Positions 1-29,166 of a stretch of 32,000 nucleotides of DNA are shown here, in pieces. The stretch is from Ignicoccus pacificus DSM 13166 (GTDB taxonomy: Archaea; Thermoproteota; Thermoprotei_A; Sulfolobales; Ignicoccaceae). The DNA is taken from NCBI GenBank assembly GCA_025340205.1, contig CP006868.1, forward strand, positions 1,620,001-1,652,000. The letters are read 5' to 3'. The stretch's first letter is position 1, and each line of letters begins with the position of its first letter. The notes beneath the pieces are model-generated. The model saw nothing but the letters and a program-made list of their open reading frames with translations. It was not told the origin of the DNA and ran no database searches. The position numbers and the translations under genes are program-made.

Positions 1-1008
1 TGGGTCGACTGCGTTTGGTCTGTTAGTAGCAGCTATAACGACGACATCTTCCCTAGCTTCAAGTCCATCCAGAAGGGTCAACAGCTGTGCCACTACCCTC
101 TTCTCCACCTCGCCGGTTACCTCCTCCCTCTTGGGGGCTATGGCGTCTATCTCGTCGATGAATATGATGCTCGGAGCGTTCTTCCTAGCCTCCTCGAAGA
201 TCTCCCTCAACCTCTGCTCGCTCTCTCCGTAGTACTTGCTCATGATCTCTGGTCCGTTTATGGCGATGAAATGCGCCTCTGTTTCGTTAGCCAGCGCTTT
301 CGCCAGAAGCGTCTTACCGGTACCAGGAGGGCCGTAGAGGAGCACTCCCTTGGGAGGCTCTATTCCCAATCTCTTGAAGACTTCGGGATACCTTAAGGGT
401 AACTCGATGAGCTCTCTGAGCTTCTGTATTACCGGCCCGAGCCCTCCTATGTCCTCCCAAGTTACCTTGGGAACCTTAGTCTGCTCGACGTACCTCTCTA
501 GGATAATGATATTGGTGTTATGAGTTATCCTAACGACGCCGCTTGGCTTAGTGTGAACGATGACGAAGGGTATGGTTTGACCGAGTATGGGTATGAGTAC
601 CGTATCTCCCTCGACTACTGGGAAGTCCATTAGCTTCTTCTTAGCATAAGGCACGAAGCCTTCGTCTATAGTCACATTAAAGCTGGTAGGAGCCAATTTC
701 ACGAGCACTGCTTTCTTCACCTTAGCTTTTCTAACATAGACCTTGTCTCCTATGTTCACTCCAGCATTTCTTCTAATGAGACCATCCATTCTAATGATGT
801 CCAGTCCTTGATCCTCCGGGTAAGCGGGCCAGACGGTGGCGGCCGTTACCCTCTTACCCTCTATTTCGACGACATCTCCATTGTGCAGACCCAACATGTC
901 CATAATCATCTTGTCTATTCTGACTCTCCCTCTGCCAACATCTCTTTGTTTAGCTTCCATTACCTTGAGCTCTACACCTTTTGGACTTATTCTCTCAGAT
1001 ATTGACAC
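1..1008 (-). CDS. cdc48: CDC48/VCP-type AAA+ ATPase, N-terminal part (N domain plus start of D1); the 3' end runs off the window
   Basis: Hand translation of the reverse strand gives [33 protein letters not shown] (CDC48 N domain). It then gives [78 protein letters not shown] (D1 Walker A and B). A GTG at 1008-1006 lies about 22 nt downstream of a TTTTATAT box. The ATG at 960 is an alternative start. Confidence 0.9.
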
Positions 1009-14005: not shown

Positions 14006-14040
14006 ATACCGTGCCAAGCTCTCCTCGCGGGCCTATCGTC

Positions 14041-15996
14041 ATGAAGAAGATAGTGTTGGGGCTAACACTACTGCTCATCTTAGCGATAATGGGTGGTTCT
14101 GCATGGGACACTTACGTGTTTATAGAGAGCACGAGACTCTTCGTGAAGGGTATAGATCCTTACGTATTCTATAACGACGTCAGAGCGTACTTACCAGGTC
14201 TAGGTCCCATGTGGCTAACCTATCCGCCGTTACCCTTGTTCCTATGGGCCCCCTTCATAGCCCCCTTAGTTTACTTGAAGATTCCTCTATCATGGCTCTA
14301 TACGTTGGCGGTAAAGATACCTTCAATCATAGCTCTCTTAGCTTCGGTCTATATGATAAAGAAGAAAAACGGTAAGTGGGTTTGGGTACTCTTTAACCCA
14401 ATAGCAATAGCTACCATATTCATTCATGGAATGTTTGACGTTATTGTTGCGTTCTTCTTACTCTTCAGTCTATTAAACATAGATGAAAGGAAGGAATTAA
14501 GTGCAATAAGTTTTGGACTGGCGCTGGCGACTAAGCAGCATGCAGTCCTAGCTGCCCCTGCCTTCTTAGCCTACTTTCTAAAGAAAAAAGATTTTAAAAA
14601 TATGATAAAGTTCTTCCTAATAGCAGCGCTAGCTTTTGCAATGGTAATACTTGCCTTTGAAGCCATCTTTGGATTCAATGACATCAGCTACTTACTCAAG
14701 AGCGTCTTTCTCTTCCATACCAAGAGACCACCTAATGGATTGGGCTTCGGTGGTTTCGCCGTAATGAACTTCTATGCGGATGCCTTCGACCATTACGCCG
14801 GCAACACAGCTGTGGCCTTGTACATGGGAGGTCATGCTTCTGTGCTTTCGAAGATCGTAGATAAGATAGCACTGCTAATGATTCCGGCTGTTCTGTTAGC
14901 ATTAAAGTTAGATCCTTTGACAGCTACATTCCTCATCTACTTGGATTATATAGCACTGAGTTACGTGGGAGCGATCCAGCATATGGTAGTTCCTATGGTG
15001 CTGGCAGGTTTAGTCTTAGCTAAGGATGACAAGTTACGCAAGATATTGCTATATAGCTTCACGCTATACGCCATAGAGCATGTATTGGTATTCTGGGACT
15101 TCTTCCCGATGTTCCTTTCGCCGCTCTTCCTGAAACAGTTTGGTATGTGGATGGCCTACATATCGAGGCTCAGTGACACGTTCTTCCCTTATTGGGCTAT
15201 GCTCTTAAGAGCGTTCGGAGTTGTAGTAACCTCAGCAGCGCTAGCTCTATTACTGATCTTCTTGACTCTCTACTATAAGGAGAAATTTGCGTTTAGGTTC
15301 TCCGGCCTAATAATACCAACCTTATACGTACTCGAAATACTGCTACTCGCGATATTCATGAGTGGCGTGACTGGTCATGTTGCAGTTCACCATCCTTCAC
15401 AAGCAAAGGGTTGGTGTCTTCTAGTACCATGGGAGAACTCAGAGTATCCAGGCTATAGGATGGGTGACTATCTATCTCCCTTTGCTATTCCCACGCCTTT
15501 AGGCTACTACTCTTACGTCTACCCAGTAGCTGAGAAGGTGATTAAAGATCTCAAGGGGAGGTGCAATATCGCAATTCTAGCTAGAGAGGACTTGTTCAGG
15601 GCTTACCAGTACGTAGACTTACTCTCCGTCATAATGAAATACAACATGACCTATGCTTGGGTAATTACATCAAACAAGAATTACCTAGAGGGATTGGGTA
15701 GTGGTCCTTATCAAACCCTCATTCCTACAATACTATCGAACATACCTTATAAGAAAATGTTCAGAATGGGAGGAATCATGGGTTTCATGAATTTGACGTT
15801 CAACTTCTTACCACCGATATCTTATCAAGGATATTACAAGGTACACAACAGGCCCGTGATCTTCGTGTGGAATATAAACCCCAATGATTTAATTACTATT
15901 AAAGAAATGGTTAGGGGCAAAGACGTTGTGATATTACCTTTTAGAGGAAAGATATTGGACATCAAAGCCTTGGGGCTATCCATAATCGGAGGCTAG
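14041..15996 (+). CDS. Large polytopic membrane protein, probably a GT-C-type glycosyltransferase (DUF2029/PMT-like)
   Basis: It has at least 12 hydrophobic segments. An acidic first loop (SAWDTYVFIESTRLFVKGIDPY) follows TM1 as in GT-C enzymes. A C-terminal soluble domain of about 200 aa follows. The ATG at 14041 (MKKIVLGLTLL) is preferred to the GTG at 14011. Confidence 0.45.
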   Translation: MKKIVLGLTLLLILAIMGGSAWDTYVFIESTRLFVKGIDPYVFYNDVRAYLPGLGPMWLTYPPLPLFLWAPFIAPLVYLKIPLSWLYTLAVKIPSIIALLASVYMIKKKNGKWVWVLFNPIAIATIFIHGMFDVIVAFFLLFSLLNIDERKELSAISFGLALATKQHAVLAAPAFLAYFLKKKDFKNMIKFFLIAALAFAMVILAFEAIFGFNDISYLLKSVFLFHTKRPPNGLGFGGFAVMNFYADAFDHYAGNTAVALYMGGHASVLSKIVDKIALLMIPAVLLALKLDPLTATFLIYLDYIALSYVGAIQHMVVPMVLAGLVLAKDDKLRKILLYSFTLYAIEHVLVFWDFFPMFLSPLFLKQFGMWMAYISRLSDTFFPYWAMLLRAFGVVVTSAALALLLIFLTLYYKEKFAFRFSGLIIPTLYVLEILLLAIFMSGVTGHVAVHHPSQAKGWCLLVPWENSEYPGYRMGDYLSPFAIPTPLGYYSYVYPVAEKVIKDLKGRCNIAILAREDLFRAYQYVDLLSVIMKYNMTYAWVITSNKNYLEGLGSGPYQTLIPTILSNIPYKKMFRMGGIMGFMNLTFNFLPPISYQGYYKVHNRPVIFVWNINPNDLITIKEMVRGKDVVILPFRGKILDIKALGLSIIGG

Positions 15997-16732
15997 AGCC
16001 CATCTCCATTTCGTAATCTATTCTTAGAGGTAGGTCCTGCCCGAAGCTAAGGCTTAAGCTCTCAGCTGCTTGGTACGCTCTAGAAGCATCGTACAGATGT
16101 GCCACTGAATACTTAGCCTTCGCCTTTTCATCAACTATTAGCGACAGCAAAGGGTTACCTAAGGAGAGCTGGGCCTCGTAACTCTTGCCCACGTCACTCG
16201 TGAGGATTCTTATCATATCGTTGCTTGGCGTTTCCATAAGTACTTCTTCACCTATTATCTTGGCATCAGCTACTATATCCCTCAAATCCTTGGGCTTCAT
16301 TGTTGCTTCAACAGTCAAGTCAACTTCTGGCTCTTGCAGATCCTCTTCTTCAGCCATCTCTAAAGCACTTACCTTGAATTCTCTCTCAACGCTAGTCTTC
16401 TTATTTATAAACTTAATTATGAAATATGGGGATCCTGTTTCGTAGCTCAATATAACCATATCATCTCTAGTTCCTCTCTTTATCACCTTAGAAACCTCAT
16501 CCGGTATGAGTTTGACTAGCAGTTCATCTTTCATGAGTACGTATTCCTCGAACGATGCCGCCACCATGTTAAATATTACCATTAAGTTGTTGTCACTACT
16601 CATTCTCTTTACATTTATGCCTTCTTGAGTTATCTTCAATGGAAGTTCCTCGAAGAGCTTGAGTATAGGTTGCCATATCTTTTTGAACTTACTAGCATTC
16701 GGGAAAACTGCCTTGAACGTAACTTCATCCAT
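15962..16732 (-). CDS. pcn: DNA polymerase sliding clamp PCNA
   Basis: The product from the ATG at 16732 (MDEVTFKAVFPNASKFKKIWQPI ...) is 256 aa and ends LRLWIAPRL, the typical archaeal PCNA C-terminus. The 68-codon extension in the ORF track is low-complexity and overlaps the divergent gene. Confidence 0.85.
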   Translation of the reverse strand: MDEVTFKAVFPNASKFKKIWQPILKLFEELPLKITQEGINVKRMSSDNNLMVIFNMVAASFEEYVLMKDELLVKLIPDEVSKVIKRGTRDDMVILSYETGSPYFIIKFINKKTSVEREFKVSALEMAEEEDLQEPEVDLTVEATMKPKDLRDIVADAKIIGEEVLMETPSNDMIRILTSDVGKSYEAQLSLGNPLLSLIVDEKAKAKYSVAHLYDASRAYQAAESLSLSFGQDLPLRIDYEMEMGSSLRLWIAPRL

Positions 16733-16762
16733 TTGAGGACCCAATGTAGCTTCGGTGCCCCC

Positions 16763-16771
16763 TTTATTATA
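16763..16771. promoter_or_regulatory. Near-palindromic TATA element shared by pcn (-) and the 16803 gene (+)
   Basis: TTTATTATA lies 31 nt upstream of the pcn ATG (16732) and 32 nt upstream of the TTG at 16803. Confidence 0.4.
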
Positions 16772-16802
16772 CTCTAGAACAGCACGGTAGCTGGGAGAGA
16801 GC

Positions 16803-17189
16803 TTGAAGGAGATAAAGATTCTCGTAGATGGGGGTAAGTATAAGTGGGTGACGCTCCCCAAGGATGAAGCTCTAAAACTCTTGGAGATGATAGAGGGAGA
16901 ACTTGGAAGAAGTCCCAGGGACCTACAAGAGACCATGAGGTACCTGAGGCATTTCGATGAGTTCTACAGGGATATGAAGAAGAGGTTCAAGGATTTCATC
17001 GCACCTTCTCATAGTTTAGATGACATGATAAGAGGGGTAGTTGTGGTTGACAAGGTGGCTCTCAAAAAGGAAGGAGATCAAGACCTAGCTACCATAGTCT
17101 TTGATAGGAGGGTCAAAACTGAGCTCTTGAAGAAGTTGCTAGAAGAATTGGGTTACAAAGTAGAGATAGAGGTGGAGAAGTTATGGTAG
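16803..17189 (+). CDS. Hypothetical protein (128 aa)
   Basis: Composition is charged and protein-like. It uses a TTG start, with the ATG at 16887 as an alternative. Its stop overlaps the start of the next gene (ATGGTAG). I recognise no family. Confidence 0.5.
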   Translation: MKEIKILVDGGKYKWVTLPKDEALKLLEMIEGELGRSPRDLQETMRYLRHFDEFYRDMKKRFKDFIAPSHSLDDMIRGVVVVDKVALKKEGDQDLATIVFDRRVKTELLKKLLEELGYKVEIEVEKLW

Positions 17190-17404
17190 AGGTCGTCAGG
17201 GTGTTTCTTCACACCTATGATGACGACCTCTTTGAGAAGGCGTTAAAGAAGTTGGAGGAACTTGGTTCTGTCAAGATTTCCAAGTCCATGGTAGTACCGA
17301 ACTACGCTTATTCGGAATTACCTCCATCTTCTTTGAGTAAGGCCAAAGAAGTACTCGAGGAATTGGGAATAGAGGACTTTAAGGTGGTACTGGTTAAAAC
17401 CTGA
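17183..17404 (+). CDS. Hypothetical small protein (73 aa)
   Basis: It is translationally coupled to the preceding ORF and contains two LEELG-type motifs. Its 3' 97 nt overlap the convergent ATPase ORF. Confidence 0.45.
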   Translation: MVEVVRVFLHTYDDDLFEKALKKLEELGSVKISKSMVVPNYAYSELPPSSLSKAKEVLEELGIEDFKVVLVKT

Positions 17405-18717
17405 AGGATTTCCTCTACGTCGACCAATATCCTCTTTACGTGACCCTGATGCCTTAGAAACACCTCCCCTCGGGGCAATGCCTTCAATAATCTATATTGT
17501 TCTCCTAGAAGCTTGAAGTATAGGTCCTCATTCTTGATACTATTCGACCTAAAGAGTATCATCGTGTGTGTATTAGTTAATATCGCATCGCTTAAGTCGC
17601 CAAGCTCTTGTGTCGATAAAACCACGCCGACGCCTTTGCTGCGCCCCTCCCTAACTAGCTCTTCCATCAATTCCTCCGAAACAATCCACGCTTCATCTAT
17701 TACGACAAGTCTTCTAAGTCTTTTCGTTGGATTCATTTCTATTATCTCATTTAGAATATTTAACATAATATCGTTTATCTTTTCATTCCTTAATCTAGGA
17801 TCACCATGATACGTTATTACATTTACCTCAAGATCAACCTTCTCCAAAATATACCTTAAATCACCTTTAGGATCAACCACAGTTACGTCAACATCTTCGC
17901 TAAGAGTTTTTAGCCTATATATTAGAGAGGCTAGAAAAGTAGTCTTCCCAGAACCCGTAGAGCCAACTACACCTACATGATGAGTCAAATCATCATATCC
18001 TAGAAATACTGGCTCATTTGTCGATATGTCTTTCCCTATATATATTCCATTGATATCTGATTTCTTGACATGGGGATACACTAGCCCTAGGGATTCAGCG
18101 GTACAAGTGATGTCCTTACTCTTTATTATGTTTACGTTTATCAATCTCTTCAGCTCTCTGTTATTAATTTTCCTCACCTTCGCACCTAAGAGGTTCTCGA
18201 GTACTACTGAGATGAACTGCATCTCAGAGCGCAACTTATTTAGTTCGTTTGAGTATAACAGATACTTCAAGTTAATACTAGCAGGAGGAACTCCTTCGCT
18301 TAGCACCTTATATAACTTCTCAAGTACCCTAAGTTTTCTATCAACCTTTACGTCTGTAGGATCGCTCATCTTCAATACCCTCAAACTAGTTATTTCTCTC
18401 TCAAGTTTCGCTAATATGTCGTTAACTGCAATTGGTTTCTTCACCAATCTTATCTCTAATATCATTCCTGGAGCCGCTCTTTGGAGAGCATAAGAATACT
18501 GCCTTATGGTCTCATAATATTCATCGTAAAGCCTACTCGGATCAATATCTACAACCTCTATTCCTCCGACAAATATCACCTTTTTCCCGTAGACAACCTT
18601 TATTATACCGTCTTCTACATTGAACATTCTCTTTCTCTTTATTCTATTACTTCGTTTACATACTATTAAGGCGACTAGCGTAGGCACCAAGATCTCAAAT
18701 ATCATTACCTCTACCAT
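17308..18717 (-). CDS. Membrane-anchored FtsK/HerA/VirB4-superfamily P-loop ATPase (CedB/TedB-like candidate)
   Basis: N-terminal TM IFEILVPTLVALIVC. Walker A THHVGVVGSTGSGKTTFL (about 17941-17985). Walker B RRLVVIDEAWIV (about 17688-17720). The N-terminal half is about 230 aa and non-P-loop, as in VirB4/HerA-like proteins. Its start overlaps the stop of the upstream membrane-protein gene. Confidence 0.7.
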   Translation of the reverse strand: MVEVMIFEILVPTLVALIVCKRSNRIKRKRMFNVEDGIIKVVYGKKVIFVGGIEVVDIDPSRLYDEYYETIRQYSYALQRAAPGMILEIRLVKKPIAVNDILAKLEREITSLRVLKMSDPTDVKVDRKLRVLEKLYKVLSEGVPPASINLKYLLYSNELNKLRSEMQFISVVLENLLGAKVRKINNRELKRLINVNIIKSKDITCTAESLGLVYPHVKKSDINGIYIGKDISTNEPVFLGYDDLTHHVGVVGSTGSGKTTFLASLIYRLKTLSEDVDVTVVDPKGDLRYILEKVDLEVNVITYHGDPRLRNEKINDIMLNILNEIIEMNPTKRLRRLVVIDEAWIVSEELMEELVREGRSKGVGVVLSTQELGDLSDAILTNTHTMILFRSNSIKNEDLYFKLLGEQYRLLKALPRGEVFLRHQGHVKRILVDVEEILQVLTSTTLKSSIPNSSSTSLALLKEDGGNSE

Positions 18718-20297
18718 AACTTAATACTCAATCTCTTAACGCCGCCAGAGATGAGCGAAGCTATAGCATACGTACTCATCGACATAATTATTATATGTAT
18801 TATTGGGACTGCGGTTATGAAGAACGGCAACAGAAGTATATCAAACTCATTATACTTATACTTACCTAGAACCTCCAGAACTTGAAGCCCTAGTTTATTT
18901 GCTAAGTATCCATACCCAACTATTCTAGGAGGCTCAAACGTCGTCTGTTCTCCAGTAATTGCTACCGTCACGTCCTTCCCTTGAGGCACGTACATCTTCA
19001 AAATCCATACGTCTATTCCGTACCACTCCTTTCTCAAAAGTATCGGATTTCTTGCACCGCTGCTAACGTAAACGCCCATACCCTTGGGATCGAACAATCC
19101 CGAGGTAGAGAGGGTAACGTTACATGCACTCCCTACATGAAAAGAGACAACAAACCTCATCTGTCCACTACTCAACGTCTCGAATTTGGGACCCGAGGTT
19201 ATCTCATAATAGCAATTTTGAGGGAAGTAGAGAACGATACCTGAATCCGGCATGACTATGCCTTTGAATGACATCTTCATTCCGTTCTTAACTGTCATAG
19301 GCTCCAGGCCCATTTTCCTCATATCAATTATACCCTTGTTTATAGTAATTCCTAATATTTGTAAGGTGAAATTTGTGTAAGGCCACGGAGCCCCACCTAG
19401 CATATAGGCTGTGTTAACCTCCCCCTTAGGGCCGGCTGGGTAGATACCACAGATGCCCTTGAGGTCGCACAATTGAAGTACGGAATACGCTAGAGGATGC
19501 CACTTACTGTCGTACAGCATTGCTTGAAAGTAGCTAACATTGCTCATGAAGGAGGGGGATTTTATTCCCAAGAAGCTATTCCATAAATTGGAAAATAGTG
19601 GATCATAGAGGGCAATTAACTTTAGTACCAATATAACTAATGGACCCATTATATAAGTTACCATAGCTAGTGCAATGAGAAATGCTCCTGATGCTTTGGT
19701 TATTCTAAAAGGGATCCCGACCATCACTATTCCCGATGCAAGCATAAAAGGCGCCAAGAGTTCCGATATTCTGCTTACAATGTAGAGAAAAGTCCATGCA
19801 TATATACCGGATTTCAGTGTTGTCAATAGCATGTCCATAAAGGGTTTCGTAAATATATTCGTAAACATATAGAACTTTGAGTATAAGTAGTAAATACCCA
19901 TAATAATAGTGCCTAGAGGAATGTTTTCGTAATTGAACTTGAAAAGCATGTTAATTACTTTTGAAATGTAATTCAAAGCTAGATAAAGTGTTCCTAAGTT
20001 TTTCGCTATTGATAATATCTCATTCACGTAGTCCTCTCTGTTAATACCCATCATTTTGTATGCGTAGCTCATTCCCCATATTATCATAGTAAAGAAAGAT
20101 ACTAGGGCTATGGTAAGAAGACCGTCACTTATTAAGGCAGGGGCCCACTTTTTTATCCCCTTTATTGGAATAGGGAGAGAATATATTAGAACACCTAGGA
20201 AGTACGTAAATACACCTAACGCGGTCGCTAAGCTCAACAGCTGCCATATTATGTCCATCTCACACCCTATTTGATAACGCCCAAAGTTCCCGTACAC
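18711..20297 (-). CDS. Polytopic membrane protein with a large extracellular domain (VirB6/CedA-like candidate)
   Basis: About 6 TM segments lie in the first 235 aa. A beta-rich, Cys-containing soluble region of about 250 aa follows, with N-x-S/T sequons. It ends in a final TM (FDILLLPFFITAVPIIHIIIMSMSTYAIASLI). An alternative start is the ATG at 20258 (MDIIWQLL). Confidence 0.6.
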   Translation of the reverse strand: MYGNFGRYQIGCEMDIIWQLLSLATALGVFTYFLGVLIYSLPIPIKGIKKWAPALISDGLLTIALVSFFTMIIWGMSYAYKMMGINREDYVNEILSIAKNLGTLYLALNYISKVINMLFKFNYENIPLGTIIMGIYYLYSKFYMFTNIFTKPFMDMLLTTLKSGIYAWTFLYIVSRISELLAPFMLASGIVMVGIPFRITKASGAFLIALAMVTYIMGPLVILVLKLIALYDPLFSNLWNSFLGIKSPSFMSNVSYFQAMLYDSKWHPLAYSVLQLCDLKGICGIYPAGPKGEVNTAYMLGGAPWPYTNFTLQILGITINKGIIDMRKMGLEPMTVKNGMKMSFKGIVMPDSGIVLYFPQNCYYEITSGPKFETLSSGQMRFVVSFHVGSACNVTLSTSGLFDPKGMGVYVSSGARNPILLRKEWYGIDVWILKMYVPQGKDVTVAITGEQTTFEPPRIVGYGYLANKLGLQVLEVLGKYKYNEFDILLLPFFITAVPIIHIIIMSMSTYAIASLISGGVKRLSIKLW

Positions 20298-23670: not shown

Positions 23671-24720
23671 CTATATGTATCCCTCCTTGTACATCAGCTC
23701 AGCCGTCAGCAAGCTAACTCCCGAAGCTCCTCTGAGAAGGTTATGACCCACTATTACCATCCTTATCCTACCTAGCTCTGTCACCTCGACCCTTCCTACA
23801 GTAACGCTCATACCGTTTCCGGCCATTCTGTCCAACCTAGGTTGAGGTCTATCGTTCTCCTCCCTTACTACGAGGGGGTTCTCAGGAGCTGTCGGTAAGC
23901 TCAACTCTTGAGGTCTCGACTTGAAGGACTTGAGCACGTCCTTCACTACATCAACGTCAACGCTCTTCTTCGTTTTAATGTAGAGTACTTCAGTATGACC
24001 GTCGAGTACCGGAACCCTTGTAGTAGTTGCCTCAACGCCGAACTTCACCTCCTCTATTCTTCCCTCCTTATACTTACCCAGTATTTTCATTGATTCTACC
24101 TTCACTTTGTATTCTTCTTTGGCTATATAGGGCAATAGGTTGTCTACTATAGCATACGCGTTAAGGCCAGCGAATCCAGCTCCACTTATGGCTTGCATAG
24201 TCGTTACGGTTATCTCATCGATACCGAACTCATCCATTATAGGTCTCAATGGCATTGTCATGACTGCTGTAGTACAGTTGGGGTTCTTGACGAGCTTCGC
24301 TCCCCACCTCTCCTGATGCTTCAAGAGTTGAAGATGTTCCCAGTTCACCTCAGGGTTCATTAGAGGTACGTCTGGCTCCAATCTGAATGGAGATGCGTTG
24401 GAGACTACGTTTATACCCCTTTTCAAGTATTTCAATTCTATCTCGCCGGCTACCTCGCTTGGCAATGCAGAGAATATTAGATCCACCTCCTCCTTTAAGG
24501 TATCCGGATCAGCTGCGTCAAAGACGACGTAGTCGGCAAACTTCTGAGGAAAAGGCCTTGGAATAATCCAATGTACTGCTTCGAAGTACTTCTTGCCCGC
24601 TGATCTCTTAGAGGCTCCAAGAGCTACCAGTTCAAAGTAAGGGTGATCTTCCAGTAAACTCGCAAACCATTGGCCTGCCATCCCGGTCGCTCCCAGGACA
24701 GCAACCCTAAGCTTGTCCAT
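23671..24720 (-). CDS. asd: Aspartate-semialdehyde dehydrogenase
   Basis: VAVLGATGMAGQ is the NAD(P) fold. The catalytic motif is KNPNCTT, and SGAG and the RVPVLDGH histidine are present. The length is typical for the archaeal enzyme (349 aa). Confidence 0.85.
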   Translation of the reverse strand: MDKLRVAVLGATGMAGQWFASLLEDHPYFELVALGASKRSAGKKYFEAVHWIIPRPFPQKFADYVVFDAADPDTLKEEVDLIFSALPSEVAGEIELKYLKRGINVVSNASPFRLEPDVPLMNPEVNWEHLQLLKHQERWGAKLVKNPNCTTAVMTMPLRPIMDEFGIDEITVTTMQAISGAGFAGLNAYAIVDNLLPYIAKEEYKVKVESMKILGKYKEGRIEEVKFGVEATTTRVPVLDGHTEVLYIKTKKSVDVDVVKDVLKSFKSRPQELSLPTAPENPLVVREENDRPQPRLDRMAGNGMSVTVGRVEVTELGRIRMVIVGHNLLRGASGVSLLTAELMYKEGYI

Positions 24721-24835
24721 CTCCTTCGGACCTCCAACATTCCTTAAGTTTCATCAAACTTAAGCTCAGCGCGCCTAGTGCTACGAGGATTATTCTTAAA
24801 ACCTCACGTAGGTTAGCCCGAAAAGGGATTCGATC

Positions 24836-24946
24836 ATGGGAGGAAGACAGAGGACCAGCTTGTTCATGGAGACCAGCTCCGAAAGAGCTAGAGTGGAGAA
24901 GAGGCTTCAAAGCAAGAAGGAGAAGGGTAAGAAGGGCAGGAAGTAA
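24836..24946 (+). CDS. Candidate 36-aa basic micro-ORF (unverified)
   Basis: ATG ... TAA encodes MGGRQRTSLFMETSSERARVEKRLQSKKEKGKKGRK. An AT-rich TTATTCTTAAAA lies about 35 nt upstream, and a T5 run (24951-24955) follows the stop. I have no homology evidence. Confidence 0.2.
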   Translation: MGGRQRTSLFMETSSERARVEKRLQSKKEKGKKGRK

Positions 24947-24991
24947 CCCATTTTTGGAGTCACTTCACACCCTCCTCGATAGGGCTCAATC

Positions 24992-25813
24992 GTGAGGTGC
25001 AAGCACAGAAGACTTAGGATCGCAATACCCTCGGACGCCCTTTCAGCAAATCCCTCGTTGAGGGAGAAAACCCTCGTGGCCGGTTACATAGCCAGAGCTG
25101 CCGCAGCCCTCCGAAGCGAGGCAATAGATATCTACATGACTGAGAGCGATGAGGGTTTAGACGTACTCTTAGAAGTCTTAAGATACCTTTCCGAACCCGC
25201 CTATCTTAGGAAAGTATTGATTCCTCTGAAACCTCAATTAAAATTCGCTGGAATACTACCTCCCGTCACAATAAAGCCCCTTAATGAGGGATTTAAAGAT
25301 CAAGAAGATAAGCTATTCTTTAAAGTAGGTGTGATTTTATCGTGTCTCAAGAATAACTATGCTAAGGTCCTAATAGATAAAGATGATGAAGTAACTATTA
25401 AGGTTGAAAAATGTAGAAGATACAAAGAAATACTAGTTGGGATAGATGAAAAGGGTAAACCTAGAAAAGTTTATCCAAGGAGGTATGGAATATGGAGAGG
25501 TCATTACCTAGGCTTTCAAGTCAGAACATTTGAAAATATCTATGATCTTCTAAGATTTTATGATAATAACAACTATAAGAAAGTAGGAACTTCGAGGTAC
25601 GGTGAGTGGCCAGGTAAACTAAGAGAGTTCGTTGGTAATGACGTCGCTCTGATTTATGGCTCTCCCTCGGCTGGCTTGCTTGAACGCTATGGTGAGTTAA
25701 ATCTCGATGCTTTAATTAATATCATACCTTGCCAAGGTGTCAAAACTGTGAGATTGGAAGAGGCTCTCTGGGCTACCGTAGGCTTATACTCTTCATTAGA
25801 ATTTGGACTCTAA
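24992..25813 (+). CDS. SPOUT-superfamily RNA methyltransferase, DUF171 (COG2106) family
   Basis: GTG start. LRIAIPSDALS ... LREKTLVAGYIARAAAALRSEAIDIY is the family N-terminus. GTSRYGEW, LIYGSPSAGL and the C-terminal IIPCQGVKTVRLEEALWATVGL trefoil-knot region are also present. Confidence 0.7.
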   Translation: MRCKHRRLRIAIPSDALSANPSLREKTLVAGYIARAAAALRSEAIDIYMTESDEGLDVLLEVLRYLSEPAYLRKVLIPLKPQLKFAGILPPVTIKPLNEGFKDQEDKLFFKVGVILSCLKNNYAKVLIDKDDEVTIKVEKCRRYKEILVGIDEKGKPRKVYPRRYGIWRGHYLGFQVRTFENIYDLLRFYDNNNYKKVGTSRYGEWPGKLREFVGNDVALIYGSPSAGLLERYGELNLDALINIIPCQGVKTVRLEEALWATVGLYSSLEFGL

Positions 25814-25821
25814 TTGAACCA

Positions 25822-25850
25822 TTGGACACTGTTTGGACAAGGTTTGGACA
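25822..25850 (+). repeat. Three direct TTGGACA boxes at exact 11-bp spacing
   Basis: TTGGACA begins at 25822, 25833 and 25844. The last two are full TTTGGACAA 9-mers. Weaker copies are TTGGAC at 25803 and 25890 and TTGGA at 25878. Confidence 0.9.
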
Positions 25851-26101
25851 AGTCTTGTTTGTCTCTTAGATATTTTGTTGGATTTTTATTTGGACTACTA
25901 AACCCATAGATGCTTCTAGAGGAATCGCAACTTACGTGAAGATTCTATATTTGGTTTTGTATAATATTTGTTTAGAGACTAATAAATAAAGCAAAGATCT
26001 CCAAAGTTTGGTGAAAGTACTAGAGGTAACTATCTACATGAGATGTCCCATGAATTGCCCAACTAAGTGTACTGGAGCTATGCAAGCTTAATTCAAACTG
26101 T

Positions 26102-26119
26102 TGTCCAAGGTTTGTCCAA
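26102..26119 (-). repeat. Two TGTCCAA boxes (reverse complement of TTGGACA) at 11-bp spacing
   Basis: TGTCCAA begins at 26102 and 26113 (TTGTCCAAG and TTGTCCAAA). This array is inverted relative to the one at 25822-25850. Confidence 0.9.
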
Positions 26120-26133
26120 ATCATGGGAATTAC

Positions 26134-27360
26134 TTAGAGATACTTAAGAAGCTCTATGAGACGTTTATCTCCGACACGATATTTGCTTCTCCTTTTTCCC
26201 CTACTACTGGGTGTCTTTTCGACTAATCCTTTTTTCAAGAGAGGCTCTTTCAAGCGGTAATGGACGGTACTCTTAGCTACGTCGTAACCTTGCTTCTTTA
26301 ACCATCTCGTAACATCACTTGGTCCCGCTTCACCGAGTTCAGCTAACGCCTTTAAGATCATTCTGTCGAGTTCGTCTAACTCAAATAAAACGGTAGTCTC
26401 CATAGCCCGTTCAGCCTCTTTTATCGCTAGCTCGATGTGCTTCTTCTGAAGAGAGCCATCCTTAGCAGCGTAGGTTAGTGCTCTCTGTGCAACCTTGATT
26501 GTATCTCTCAATATTGGGAAGTGCTTCCAAATTTCCTCGATCCATTCCTCCTTGAATGGATAGAATGGGTTCTCTGGAGTGGCGAAATCTTTCAATCTTT
26601 TTGAGAATACCTTCTTGGTCTCCTCAGCGTTATAGCCAGGTATCCTAATTTCTATGAACTTACTGACTACGTGTGGAAATCGAGTCCTGAAGGAGTTTAG
26701 ATGGTCAGGTATTATAGTGAAGATGAAGCTAACCTTTCCTTGCCCCTGTAAGAGGTTGTCGAACCAGAAGGCAAGCTGTTCAAATGACTCAGAATAGGCG
26801 AATCCGTCTACCATGAAAATCACTGGTATGTTGCTGTTATCTACTATAAAGCCTAAGGCGGATTTCAAGGTATCTAAATCAACTCTTCCCATTTTCTCAA
26901 ATCTCATAAGCACGTTTTCTACTACTTGAGTTATATACTTGAAGAACTTTTCATACTCTTGGTTCATCCCTACGAAGTATATCCAGCCCGGCTTCTTGAA
27001 ACCCTTTTCAAGACCTTTGAGTAGATTATATAAGAATTTCTGAGGGTTATCGTCGTAGACGGTCTTTACTACTATGGGAATTAGCTTCTTCATTGATGCT
27101 TCTAAGGGTGACCGCGGGTAAGGGATATCCATTTCCTTTCTCCAGAAATTCAAGAACGTAGACTTGCCTAGACCGTAGCTTCCAACTACGAAGACTCTGC
27201 TATTGCCACCTTCCTTCACTATTTTCTCATATACTAGCTTTTCGAAGAGGTTATCAGGTTCGTAGCGCTTGACGTAGAACCGCAGCATTTCGCCGTCCAG
27301 CGGAGCCGGCTCGAACCTCCGTATCAGTTCGTAGAAGTCGGGCGGCACGCCACTCTCCAC
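26134..27360 (-). CDS. Divergent Orc1/Cdc6-like AAA+ ATPase with a C-terminal winged helix
   Basis: Walker A VFVVGSYGLGKSTFL (about 27158-27196). Degenerate Walker B VIFMVDGF. IEIRIPGYNAEETKKVFSKRL and ILRDTIKVAQRALTYAAKDG resemble the Orc1/Cdc6 box VII and lid. The terminal wHTH is LDRMILKALAELGEAGPSDVTRWLKKQGYDVAKSTVHYRLKEPLLKKGLVEK. A GTG at 27360 lies 22 nt downstream of a TTTTTACA box. The ORF-track ATG at 27486 would add 42 codons that run through the repeat cluster. Confidence 0.6.
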   Translation of the reverse strand: MESGVPPDFYELIRRFEPAPLDGEMLRFYVKRYEPDNLFEKLVYEKIVKEGGNSRVFVVGSYGLGKSTFLNFWRKEMDIPYPRSPLEASMKKLIPIVVKTVYDDNPQKFLYNLLKGLEKGFKKPGWIYFVGMNQEYEKFFKYITQVVENVLMRFEKMGRVDLDTLKSALGFIVDNSNIPVIFMVDGFAYSESFEQLAFWFDNLLQGQGKVSFIFTIIPDHLNSFRTRFPHVVSKFIEIRIPGYNAEETKKVFSKRLKDFATPENPFYPFKEEWIEEIWKHFPILRDTIKVAQRALTYAAKDGSLQKKHIELAIKEAERAMETTVLFELDELDRMILKALAELGEAGPSDVTRWLKKQGYDVAKSTVHYRLKEPLLKKGLVEKTPSSRGKRRSKYRVGDKRLIELLKYL

Positions 27361-27373
27361 TCCCCTACTAGTG

Positions 27374-27525
27374 TGTCCAAATGTAAAAACAGCGGTAACC
27401 CTTGAGTTGGATAATAGGACATCTATCAGTGGTTGGACTAAGTGATAATGTAGTACAAATGGTCCAGATGTCCATTGGACGAACAAACTAGTTGTACCGA
27501 GATAATTAGTTGTCCAAGTGTCCTG
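27374..27525. repeat. Cluster of TTGGACA/TGTCCAA boxes in both orientations in the divergent promoter region
   Basis: TGTCCAA at 27374. TTGGATA at 27407. TTGGACT at 27433. The palindrome GTCCATTGGAC at 27470-27480. TGTCCAA at 27511. TGTCCT at 27519. TATA-like elements lie at 27382-27389 (-) and 27502-27508 (+). Confidence 0.85.
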
Positions 27526-27534
27526 CAGGAGTGG

Positions 27535-28155
27535 GTGCTACTCGAGTTGCCCGCTCGTCCCAAGATAATCACAAAAGTACTTGAATCAATCTATCCTCTT
27601 CATGACGATGTTGTCGCTATAAAGTTCATTGAAAGAGGTTATTATAAGAGGGCATTAGAACTGTTAGGTAATTGGAAAAGGATACTAGAGGTAGGATGTG
27701 GTACTGGAAGACTGTTAGAGGTGGCTAGAGAGAACGGGAAACCCTTGTGGGGTCTTGATATATCACTGAAGTTCCTAAAAATTTCGAAAGAAAGGTTCAA
27801 GGATTATCCCGCAGACTTCGTCTACGGAACTGCTACAAACCTACCTTTTCGCTCCAACTCCTTTGATGGAGTTCTAACATTCACCATGATTCATCACTTG
27901 ACTAAGGAGGAAAAAATACAAATGATAGAGGAGATAGCCAAGCTCTCCGATAAGTATGCCTTTGGAGAAGTAGGTAAGAGGATATGCTGGAGTGCTATTC
28001 TACTAAAGATAATAGGGTCTAAGGACTTGATATCAAAGGAGTTATTCAAGAAGGCTGGAATGAAAATAGAGAGATGGGAAGATCCTAAGGGATTTTGTTT
28101 GATCATTGGGTTGGCGAGAAGATTAAGTGGCCCGGTACGCCGAGATGCACGGTAG
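27535..28155 (+). CDS. Class I SAM-dependent methyltransferase (Methyltransf_11-like)
   Basis: Motif I is ILEVGCGTGRLLE, and post-I and motif II are LDIS ... FDGVLTFTMIHHL. A GTG at 27535 lies 27 nt downstream of ATAATTA. The ORF-track TTG at 27475 lies inside the repeat palindrome. Confidence 0.7.
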   Translation: MLLELPARPKIITKVLESIYPLHDDVVAIKFIERGYYKRALELLGNWKRILEVGCGTGRLLEVARENGKPLWGLDISLKFLKISKERFKDYPADFVYGTATNLPFRSNSFDGVLTFTMIHHLTKEEKIQMIEEIAKLSDKYAFGEVGKRICWSAILLKIIGSKDLISKELFKKAGMKIERWEDPKGFCLIIGLARRLSGPVRRDAR

Positions 28156-28161
28156 ATCGGC

Positions 28162-29166
28162 GTGAGGATCCGCGTCTTAGCAACGCACAGCGGGGGCTAC
28201 CCGCGCCCACCGGAATGGAGAAAGAGCATAGACCTATACAACGCCGGTAAACTAGACTACATATCCTTAATGAGTACTTGGGAAAGTGCCAGTAAGAAGG
28301 TGATCTTTGAACAAGTGGAGGAAGGTCTAGACGTCGTGACCACCGGTCACTTGGCTTGGGACGATATCTTCAGACCCTTCGCTGAGGCATGGGCTGGAGT
28401 AGAACTACCTGAGGTCGGAGGTTATTACAGATACTACGAGCTAAACTTCTATTATAAGAAACCTATAATTAACGGACCTATAAGGCCTACTAGGCCTGTT
28501 ATGTTCAAGGAGCAGTTGTTAGCATCCGAGATATCGCCTAGGATGGTAAAGATATCGATACCCGGACCGTTAACCTTCGCCTTGCATGTTCAAGATGAGT
28601 TCTATGAGGATGTTGAGGAGTTGATGAATGATCTAACCTATGCCTTAGCGTATGAGGTCGAAGCCGTAGAAGGTTTGATCGACTATGTACAGATAGAGGA
28701 GCCAGCTTTGGTCGATCCCGAAGTAAAGCCAGAAGACGTAGACCTAGGTATCGAGTACATCAACAAGTTATCCAACCTAATTTCAGTTCCTGTAGTCGTT
28801 AAGACTTACTTTAAGCCCGCCGAAAGAGTGTACAAGCTACTCATGGGACTAAACGTCGACGGATTAGGATTTGATATGGTGGCTTGGAACTATGAGGACC
28901 TCAAGGAAACGATAAACGAGTACGGCTATCCGTTTGAGATAATAGACTTAGGAGTAGGCGACGCCCTGAACGTTAGGCTAGAGGCTATAGAAGAGAACGT
29001 GAGTAAGATAATGGCTGTTCTCGACGAGGCCTGTCCTAAGGAAGTTCATATAAGCCATAACTATCGCCTAGATGTACTTCCTTATTCTCATATAAGGAAG
29101 AAGCTTCGCAGGCTAGCGGAGATTGCCCTTAATCTGAGGAAGGCTATTGAGGAGGGGGTGAAGTGA
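28162..29166 (+). CDS. MetE N-terminal-domain-like protein (split cobalamin-independent methionine synthase, non-catalytic half)
   Basis: GTG start, 334 aa. It has a (beta/alpha)8 MetE-like pattern ([22 protein letters not shown]) but lacks the His/Cys zinc ligands. The catalytic half follows after one nucleotide. Confidence 0.65.

Follow-up and report, generated by a model that had tools for sequence, protein, structure and literature searches.

The stretch analysed here (the window) comprises 32,000 nucleotides of Ignicoccus pacificus DSM 13166 (contig CP006868.1, positions 1,620,001 to 1,652,000), and our subject is one of its genes, IPA_09595, together with the family of short repeated boxes that lies on both sides of it. 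A previous reading, made from the letters of the sequence only (the sequence-only reading), had described at this site an open reading frame (ORF) of 450 aa with a TTG start, 26134-27486 (-). This ORF does exist in the window, and the GenBank gene lies inside it with 100% identity over 404 aa, but the start has to be moved: in the IPA_09595 model and in all homologues, translation begins at the position of a GTG at 27348. Because the homologues start at the equivalent of this position, the first 46 codons of the longer ORF are probably untranslated; the 138 nt upstream of the GTG carry a TATA-like element and conserved boxes, and the gene was therefore taken as 26134-27348 (-), which the 450-aa ORF most likely over-extends. 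Members of the family are named in the databases as "hypothetical protein", "winged-helix domain-containing protein" or "MarR family transcriptional regulator".

The protein is laid out as an AAA+ core and a helical lid, which together make up some 320 residues, followed by a C-terminal winged helix-turn-helix (wHTH) domain. This order had been proposed in the sequence-only reading and was upheld by Foldseek, by profile search and by hhalign; the GSYGLGKST Walker A, the MVDG Walker B with no acidic pair, the lid segments and the wHTH that it had listed were likewise all found. In the alignment of 25 family sequences G59, G61, K62, D181, R251 and R281 vary little or not at all, and the Walker A motif, GSYGLGK[ST]T, with G59, G61 and K62 invariant, has the GxxGxGK[ST] pattern of Orc1/Cdc6. 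The Walker B strand reads FM(I/V)D(G/S) in 10/10 proteins of the Ignicoccus clade, and in none of these ten is the catalytic Glu of the Orc1/Cdc6 motif hhhhDE present; the distant relatives have D[DEN], so that the atypical Walker B is real and confined to the Ignicoccus clade. Four helices are placed between beta-2 and beta-3 in the AlphaFold model (residues 102-171), and LLKGLEKGFKKPGWIY is aligned by hhalign and hmmsearch with the initiator-specific motif (ISM) region of Cdc6 and Orc1-1, a correspondence at the level of sequence alignment only. The lid is made up of IEIRIPGYNAEETKKVFSKRL and ILRDTIKVAQRAL. In the profile alignment IRIPGYNAEE..KR pairs with IIFPPYNAEEL..ILTKR of Orc1/Cdc6, and R281 (ILRD) pairs with GDAR at the sensor-2 position.

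Searches of Pfam, NCBIfam and the Protein Data Bank (PDB) with the single protein sequence returned sub-threshold noise only, and no curated hidden Markov model recognises the IPA_09595 protein. The best PDB match of a family profile built from the 25 sequences was Cdc6-1/Orc1-1 of S. solfataricus (2qby_A, E 2e-15), in an alignment that spans the N-terminal "R-E" helix, Walker A, the post-beta-2 region, Walker B and the sensor-1 strand, and which also takes in IIFPPYNAEELEDILTKR against IRIPGYNAEETKKVFSKR, GDAR against ILRD, and the winged helix; the next matches were RuvB, TnsC, A. pernix ORC1 and ORC2, and human ORC4. When compared by hhalign with a pair of true Cdc6 proteins, the wide profile scored a probability of 96.4% (E 1.3e-9). 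The Ignicoccus-only profile scored 57% against Cdc6, with an alignment confined to the P-loop and the ISM region, where LLKGLEKGFKKPGWIYFVG..YEKFFKY stands opposite ILKALAKFFPKEDFIGYSS..YEKLLDY. The AlphaFold (AF2) model from the 25-sequence alignment (pLDDT 89.7, pTM 0.77), which superseded a model made with 10 close homologues (pLDDT 62), has the AAA+ base, lid and C-terminal winged helix of the Orc1/Cdc6 family. As searched by Foldseek against the PDB, ranks 1-21 were all occupied by Orc1/Cdc6/ORC structures (E 2e-11 to 1e-8, alignments of 420-490 columns), the best examples being A. pernix ORC2 (2e-11) and Sso Cdc6-1 (TM 0.62/0.67), and these were followed by NLR proteins (plant Sr35), SSO1545 (3.6e-7), PAB2304, RuvB and TnsC. 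A search of the BFVD viral fold library yielded generic AAA+ proteins only. Since the profile, hhalign, AlphaFold and Foldseek results agree, the protein is, as judged from aligned profiles and a modelled fold, either a strongly diverged member of the Orc1/Cdc6 initiator clade or a sister to it, in keeping with the likeness to Orc1/Cdc6 first noticed by eye.

The family is small. Among 5.8 billion proteins, a word-indexed search picked out 10 members at 62-100% identity, all of them from Ignicoccus (I. hospitalis carries the gene too) or from metagenome-assembled genomes (MAGs) of related vent organisms, and when the family profile was run by HMMER against a full set of 1.84 billion cluster representatives, no more than 17 matches reached E<=1e-3. 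The distant matches, at 20-25% identity, are proteins of 350-450 aa with a P-loop domain and then a C-terminal wHTH, the P-loop giving sub-threshold matches to AAA_16, AAA_22, ATPase_2 or KAP. The nearest relative outside the genus, P0013 (from a Korarchaeota or Thermoproteota MAG), is encoded at a distance of 590 bp from a bona fide Orc1/Cdc6 gene (matching 2qby_A by phmmer at 1.5e-21) on a small contig, L013, of hypothetical genes rich in private repeats; a second relative, P0016, has a ParA gene nearby among small unknown ORFs. Both contigs look like mobile elements. On L013 (and on L014) a motif of about 20 nt, TGACGCCACACAAA..ATTA, occurs in both orientations in at least 9 copies, mostly intergenic, and a palindrome, TGCTGACCCTCCAGGGTCAGCA, is found on both sides of the Orc1/Cdc6 gene of L013, which has the appearance of a plasmid or virus carrying a regulatory repeat set of its own.

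The surroundings of the gene were compared in detail at 10 loci (the window, I. islandicus, I. hospitalis and seven MAG contigs). A scan of genome contigs had found two MAG loci only, and a metagenome scan with a composite pattern added one more gene-adjacent locus, the eleventh, for which the downstream region only was checked, and one AT-rich, bacterial-like chance match. In all loci a 3' intergenic region of 290-325 bp is kept at the same position, within compact genomes and between convergent genes, an arrangement in which no promoter is needed. The region opens, 3-21 nt past the stop codon (14 nt in the window, and at the same position in the aligned loci), with one to three TTTGGACAA boxes at 11-bp spacing, and it ends with an inverted set of two or three TTGTCCAAA boxes, which are likewise spaced by 11 bp and adjoined by weaker half-boxes (in the window GTCCAAA and ATCCAAC at about 25878-25897, and one over the last codons of the convergent gene). 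Between the two arrays lie 150-270 bp of AT-rich DNA, whose GC content is 6-10 percentage points below that of its locus and which is among the most AT-rich 60-nt windows in 6/9 loci tested. A variable AT-rich stretch follows the proximal boxes, and another variable stretch, of 85-125 nt, separates the distal boxes from a 10-mer, TTATACAAAA, near the centre of the region; the DNA between the conserved elements is scrambled among the genomes and only the boxes and the 10-mer are kept. The inverted, 11-bp-phased arrays, the AT-rich core and the invariant 10-mer are present in 11/11 loci. Both the window and the other loci show inverted repeats around an AT-rich region beside an initiator-like gene, as is characteristic of crenarchaeal oriC.

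The boxes are largely restricted to the module formed by the gene and its two flanking intergenic regions. In the window, 5/5 exact copies of TTGGACAA fall in 25833-27517, and a position weight matrix, built from the module itself, gave a box density of 0.41 per kb outside the module as compared to roughly 12-18 per kb in the two intergenic regions. Across 162 kb from the 10 loci, pairs of boxes spaced by 11 bp were found in the 3' intergenic region only. These data bear out the claim of the sequence-only reading that a private repeat family lies on either side of the gene; boxes flank every orthologue examined. A search of Rfam gave nothing in 24700-28300. The coordinates of all features are collected in Table 1.

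Table 1. Features of the IPA_09595 locus (window coordinates) and of its protein (residue numbers)
Feature	Position	Strand	Remarks
IPA_09595, divergent Orc1/Cdc6-like AAA+ protein with lid and C-terminal winged helix	26134..27348	-	404 aa, GTG start
5' part of the 450-aa ORF, probably untranslated promoter/operator DNA	27349..27486	-	judged from homologue starts, boxes and TATA-like element
3' intergenic region between two convergent genes, putative origin	25814..26133		320 bp
Gene-proximal box array, TTTGGACAA (26120-26112) and CTTGGACAA (26109-26101)	26101..26120	-	11-bp spacing
AT-rich core between the inverted arrays, candidate duplex-unwinding region	25853..26100		GC 0.34 (window 0.44)
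ucm-like element ATTATACAAAA	25955..25965	-	only exact TTATACAAA in the 32-kb window
Distal box array, TTGTCCAAA, TTGTCCAAA, GTGTCCAAT	25822..25852	-	11-bp spacing; inverted relative to proximal array
Upstream box cluster	27373..27517		presumed autoregulatory operators
Single upstream boxes	27373-27380 (-), 27407-27414 (+), 27433-27440 (+), 27475-27482 (+), 27510-27517 (-)		
TATA-like element TTTTTACA	27382..27389	-	about 35 nt upstream of GTG start
Conserved palindrome CCTGCAGG	27522..27529		beside outermost box, just upstream of likely methyltransferase start (GTG 27535)
Walker A GSYGLGKST	residues 56-63		
ISM-like loop GFKKPGWIY	residues 116-124		
Walker B (strand VIFMVDGF)	D181-G182		no second acidic residue
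Putative sensor-1	T211		
PGYNAEE box	residues 237-243		
Conserved Arg	R251		nearly invariant
Sensor-2 (ILRD)	R281		nearly invariant
wHTH	residues ~325-404		

The central 10-mer has the same letters as the ucm element of S. islandicus oriC1, as known from published oligonucleotides. Its longer form, ATTATACAAAA, present in 6/10 Ignicoccus loci (TTATACAAAA being present in all), matches the ucm oligonucleotides of oriC1 from both S. islandicus (...AACCATTATACAAAAGAATT...) and S. acidocaldarius (ATTATACAAAC), the Sulfolobus oligonucleotide pair being ATTATACAAAC and ATTATACAAAAG (Dhanaraju et al. 2025, PMC12141716). Exact copies of TTATACAAA are rare: in the 162 kb of the ten loci there are 12, of which 11 lie inside the 3' intergenic region. 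At Sulfolobus oriC1 the ucm is situated in the duplex-unwinding element (DUE, or unwinding region), midway between the origin recognition boxes ORB2 and ORB3, and is required for firing; it is also found at oriC2, at oriC3 and at both Aeropyrum pernix origins, and it is bound by an essential protein, UBP, which interacts with MCM (PMC12141716). Other authors regard it as the hallmark at the centre of origins in Sulfolobus and Aeropyrum, and it has served to locate oriC3 (PMC3718332). The Ignicoccus element, like the ucm of crenarchaeal oriC, lies inside an AT-rich region.

On its other side the gene shares an intergenic region of about 185 bp with a divergent S-adenosylmethionine (SAM)-methyltransferase gene, the likely start of which is the GTG at 27535. 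Four or five boxes, in both orientations, occur in this upstream region across the loci. One of these in the window, TTGGACAC at 27373-27380, is directly downstream of the TATA-like element, and TTTTTACA, CTTTATC or CTTTATAC stands at the TATA position in 9 loci. The possibility that the upstream boxes are coding sequence for an N-terminal extension of the methyltransferase was considered and rejected, as the frame differs or is closed among genomes: depending on the genome, the upstream DNA falls into frame 0 or frame 2 of the methyltransferase ORF or is separated from it by a stop codon. At one MAG locus, L003, whose protein is 62% identical, all the neighbouring genes are different and both sets of sites are kept. 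As L003 retains its sites in another neighbourhood, the gene and its sites form one portable cassette. The palindrome CCTGCAGG is seen at the same position in L001, L003-L009 and L011, and is thus kept in L003 without the methyltransferase.

Box-like sequences were also encountered in unrelated DNA. An exact 20-mer, TTGTCCAAANNTTGTCCAAA, is found in 45 stretches of viral contigs (L015-L059, IMG/VR), mostly of low GC content and from bacterial phages, in many of which it lies just past a terminator-like hairpin, typically as TTGTCCAAAATTTGTCCAAAA. None of these contigs encodes a homologue of the Ignicoccus protein and they were judged unrelated; their repeats look like an unrelated operator or iteron family that shares the box by chance. 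A metagenome contig of 1.1 kb, AT-rich and equipped with a terminator of bacterial type, has CATTATACAAAAAAG and, about 90 nt on, three TGTCCAAATCT repeats (L060, positions 585-700). This contig encodes no homologue either, and its fit to the composite pattern is probably accidental and falls within the phage-type box family.

Since an Orc1-clade gene adjoins inverted repeats, an AT-rich and ucm-centred core and convergent genes, we propose that IPA_09595 encodes a non-canonical initiator of the Orc1 clade with its own, putative, chromosomal origin, and we put the probability of this at about 0.6. In its sequence the locus has the standard anatomy of a crenarchaeal origin, with the ORB elements replaced by phased 9-bp boxes. 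Whether it is moreover an active origin in the Ignicoccaceae that does without canonical Orc1/Cdc6 and ORB, where a private, hydrolysis-deficient initiator works on DnaA-like arrays around a ucm, we consider an even question. In the mechanism that we infer, the winged helix and, probably, a basic ISM-like loop, GFKKPGWIY, would bind the 9-bp box TTGTCCAAA; the ATP-bound protein would oligomerise on each array, with one helical turn per box, so that both oligomers face the AT-rich core, to which MCM would be recruited; a UBP-like factor on the ucm would help MCM to leave the origin; and the promoter boxes would provide autoregulation. A Walker B with no catalytic Glu may keep the protein ATP-bound, as in Orc1-1 E147A. 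This hydrolysis-deficient mutant still recruits and loads MCM (PMC12141716), and for that reason the missing Glu need not be disabling.

The pair of gene and origin was probably captured from an extrachromosomal replicon, because the cassette moves as one and the distant relatives sit on element-like contigs. The suggestion of the sequence-only reading that this is the initiator of a captured replicon has gained two things, the central ucm and the relatives beside Orc1/Cdc6 or ParA on element-like contigs, which are consistent with it; capture and initiation themselves are put forward here as a probable history and a probable function. In I. hospitalis, Orc1/Cdc6 genes exist and are not co-localised with the predicted origin (Podar et al. 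2008, PMC2614490). The module described here may be that "predicted origin" unlinked to the orc1/cdc6 genes, and may have come from an extrachromosomal element. We found no paper on this protein family or on an origin at this locus, and no mapped or predicted Ignicoccus origin in the literature beyond that of Podar et al. The I. hospitalis module (L011, CP000816, about 673.2-674.7 kb of 1,297,538 bp) is no more than about 25 kb away from the position diametrically opposite coordinate 1 of its record, and that of I. islandicus is about 50 kb from the end of its record.

Several observations weigh against a replication initiator and its origin. The protein scores 14.8 bits with TIGR02928, for which the cutoff is 181.3, and Cdc6_C (PF09079) was not reported for it at E<=1; a profile of the 10 close Ignicoccus sequences matched wHTH proteins only in the PDB, and the sequence link to Orc1 is bridged through relatives at 20-25% identity. 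Unlike ORB elements, the TTGTCCAAA-type boxes are the sole conserved repeats in the aligned regions; no ORB-like dyad was seen to be conserved there by eye, no formal scan for the ORB consensus having been made. The GC skew at four-fold sites, compared between putative leading-strand and lagging-strand genes of the flanks, was mixed and under-powered. In Sulfolobus, UBP and ucm occur at 329 sites, mostly non-origin and intergenic (PMC12141716), and therefore a ucm alone is no proof of an origin. Finally, TTATACAAAA has an A-rich 5' flank resembling a TFB-recognition element (BRE) and could be a BRE/TATA promoter, and the sequence of the wHTH is closest to the Lrp, MarR, PadR and TrmB regulators.

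The last points lead to the main rival explanation, which we regard as unlikely: that the protein is an autoregulated, ATP-sensing AAA+-wHTH transcription factor which binds the boxes in the promoter shared with the methyltransferase-MetE genes, and that TTATACAAAA serves as TATA box for some small transcript, unconserved or antisense, which the flanking box arrays control by looping. Besides the affinities of its wHTH and the BRE-like flank of the 10-mer, the name "MarR family regulator" given to the I. islandicus orthologue in RefSeq, the overlap of boxes with the promoter (one of them just past the TATA-like element, a typical position for an archaeal repressor) and the influence of UBP/ucm sites, most of them non-origin, on expression in Sulfolobus (PMC12141716) are all consistent with such a regulator. 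As an identity for the whole protein, however, MarR was rejected, as its match (18.8 bits, cutoff 24.6) covers only residues 363-398 of the 450-aa ORF, whereas MarR regulators are proteins of about 140-160 aa in which dimerisation helices flank the wHTH, and both the full-length fold and the motif set are of the initiator type, with no counterpart among known archaeal regulators. Invariance over 10 nt is more than a TATA box requires, given that the gene's own TATA varies; downstream of the 10-mer only boxes are conserved, with no Rfam match and no conserved transcript evident. Nor are paired boxes found at other promoters in the 162 kb, and L003 keeps the module in the absence of the methyltransferase operon.

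It is improbable, in our estimate, that the locus is a relic or dormant origin, i.e. a captured plasmid or viral replicon that no longer fires and whose protein has been domesticated, for instance to organise or silence the locus. The absence of the catalytic residue from Walker B throughout the clade and the element-like contexts of the distant homologues would fit such a history, and dormant archaeal origins are reported from Haloferax mediterranei (PMC4595724). Against this, the protein, the phasing and orientation of the boxes and the ucm are under strong purifying selection down to 62% protein identity, and the rest of the intergenic region is scrambled; conserved elements amid scrambled intergenic DNA argue for a working cis element, and a hydrolysis-dead Orc1-1 is still active in MCM recruitment (PMC12141716). 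Very improbable is a third explanation, in which the protein is a STAND, KAP or PF01637 NTPase that serves in defence or signalling, or belongs to a segregation system with the boxes as its centromere. The weak Pfam matches to KAP_NTPase (18.4 bits, cutoff 20) and NACHT (13.8, cutoff 26.7) point in its direction, as do the presence of the plant NLR Sr35 and SSO1545 lower in the Foldseek list, a match of the family profile to the AspA wHTH (E about 1e-7), and the "DG" after the Walker B strand, which we take to recall NACHT. These Pfam matches are below cutoff, ATPase_2/PF01637 and NB-ARC gave no significant match in Pfam, PADLOC and PHROGs returned wHTH and clamp-loader-lid matches only (those of PADLOC covering the wHTH alone), and the placement in a PF01637 or STAND/defence family that the sequence-only reading had seen as the alternative was thus not obtained. 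The protein, of 404 aa, ends at its wHTH with no region of sensor repeats, and it has a sensor-2 Arg and a putative ISM-like insert; in the Foldseek list the E-values of Orc1/Cdc6 structures are better by four orders of magnitude than those of any STAND or PF01637 structure, and no ParA-type partner adjoins the gene in the Ignicoccus loci.

When set beside known systems, the putative initiator and origin resemble archaeal Orc1/Cdc6 (2qby_A; A. pernix ORC1 2v1u and ORC2 1w5s) in the AAA+ base, lid and winged helix, the Walker A GxxGxGK[ST], a helical insert behind beta-2 that would correspond to the ISM, the sensor-2 Arg, the box P(P/G)YNAEE...(I/V)(L/F)..R, and the position of the gene directly beside inverted sites that flank an AT-rich, ucm-containing region. 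They differ in that the Ignicoccus protein has about 15% identity and fails TIGR02928 and Cdc6_C, has D-G/S and not D-E in Walker B, is longer by about 35 residues between the ISM region and beta-3, and has a wHTH of the MarR/Lrp sequence type, and in that its sites are 9-bp TTGTCCAAA boxes phased by 11 bp and not ORB or mini-ORB dyads. The oriC3 of Sulfolobus, regarded as a captured element, is reportedly specified by a non-Orc1 initiator, WhiP, a Cdt1-like double winged-helix protein with no ATPase domain. Both there and here, an origin-like chromosomal region has a ucm and initiator-specific repeats beside a non-canonical initiator gene, with canonical Orc1/Cdc6 genes elsewhere in the genome (on the Ignicoccus side, in I. 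hospitalis, PMC2614490); however, the Ignicoccus protein is an Orc1-clade AAA+ ATPase, and the activity of oriC3 is demonstrated whereas the Ignicoccus origin is putative. As for the ucm/UBP element, the Ignicoccus ATTATACAAAA is the same as the ucm core of S. islandicus oriC1 and central between inverted sites; the Sulfolobus motif also occurs at about 300 non-origin sites (PMC12141716), and the likeness of the Ignicoccus element is one of letters. PF01637 proteins (SSO1545, 2fna; PAB2304, 2qen) share the AAA+-like NTPase, lid and winged helix and a length of about 350-400 aa, but are weaker Foldseek matches (E 4e-7 to 2e-6 vs 2e-11 for Orc). Arrays of low-affinity DnaA sites are a feature of E. 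coli oriC, and the 9-bp boxes at about 11 bp centre to centre, in two opposed arrays by an unwinding region, recall the bacterial arrangement by analogy only: the DNA-binding domain and the lineage differ, and there is no sequence relationship beyond the shared AAA+ initiator clade.

About 9 kb from the module, the window also contains a PCNA_N-domain ORF (15962-16936, -), a HerA/FtsK-type ATPase gene (17308-18717, -) and a 528-aa ORF (18711-20297, -), the orthologues of which in related loci belong to the CedA1 family; this group resembles a cluster for Ced DNA import with a PCNA paralogue next to it. For a 661-aa ORF at 14011-15996 (+) no Pfam match was obtained at E<=1e-5.

The finding is best described as an Orc1-clade initiator and a ucm-type origin, both already known in kind, in which the recognition element differs and Walker B is naturally defective. 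If correct, it may add an archaeal pair to Orc1-1/oriC1, Orc1-3/oriC2 and WhiP/oriC3. Archaeal origins are usually found from orc1/cdc6 genes and ORB repeats, to which I. hospitalis is a reported exception (PMC2614490); a hidden Orc1-clade initiator with its own boxes and a shared ucm would explain such exceptions. The family is invisible to current annotation, and I. hospitalis is cultivable. The gain of origins by capture of extrachromosomal elements would then extend to another lineage, the ucm would be a portable core that serves quite different initiators, and Ignicoccus would offer a naturally Walker-B-defective initiator in which to study the role of the ATP state in MCM loading.

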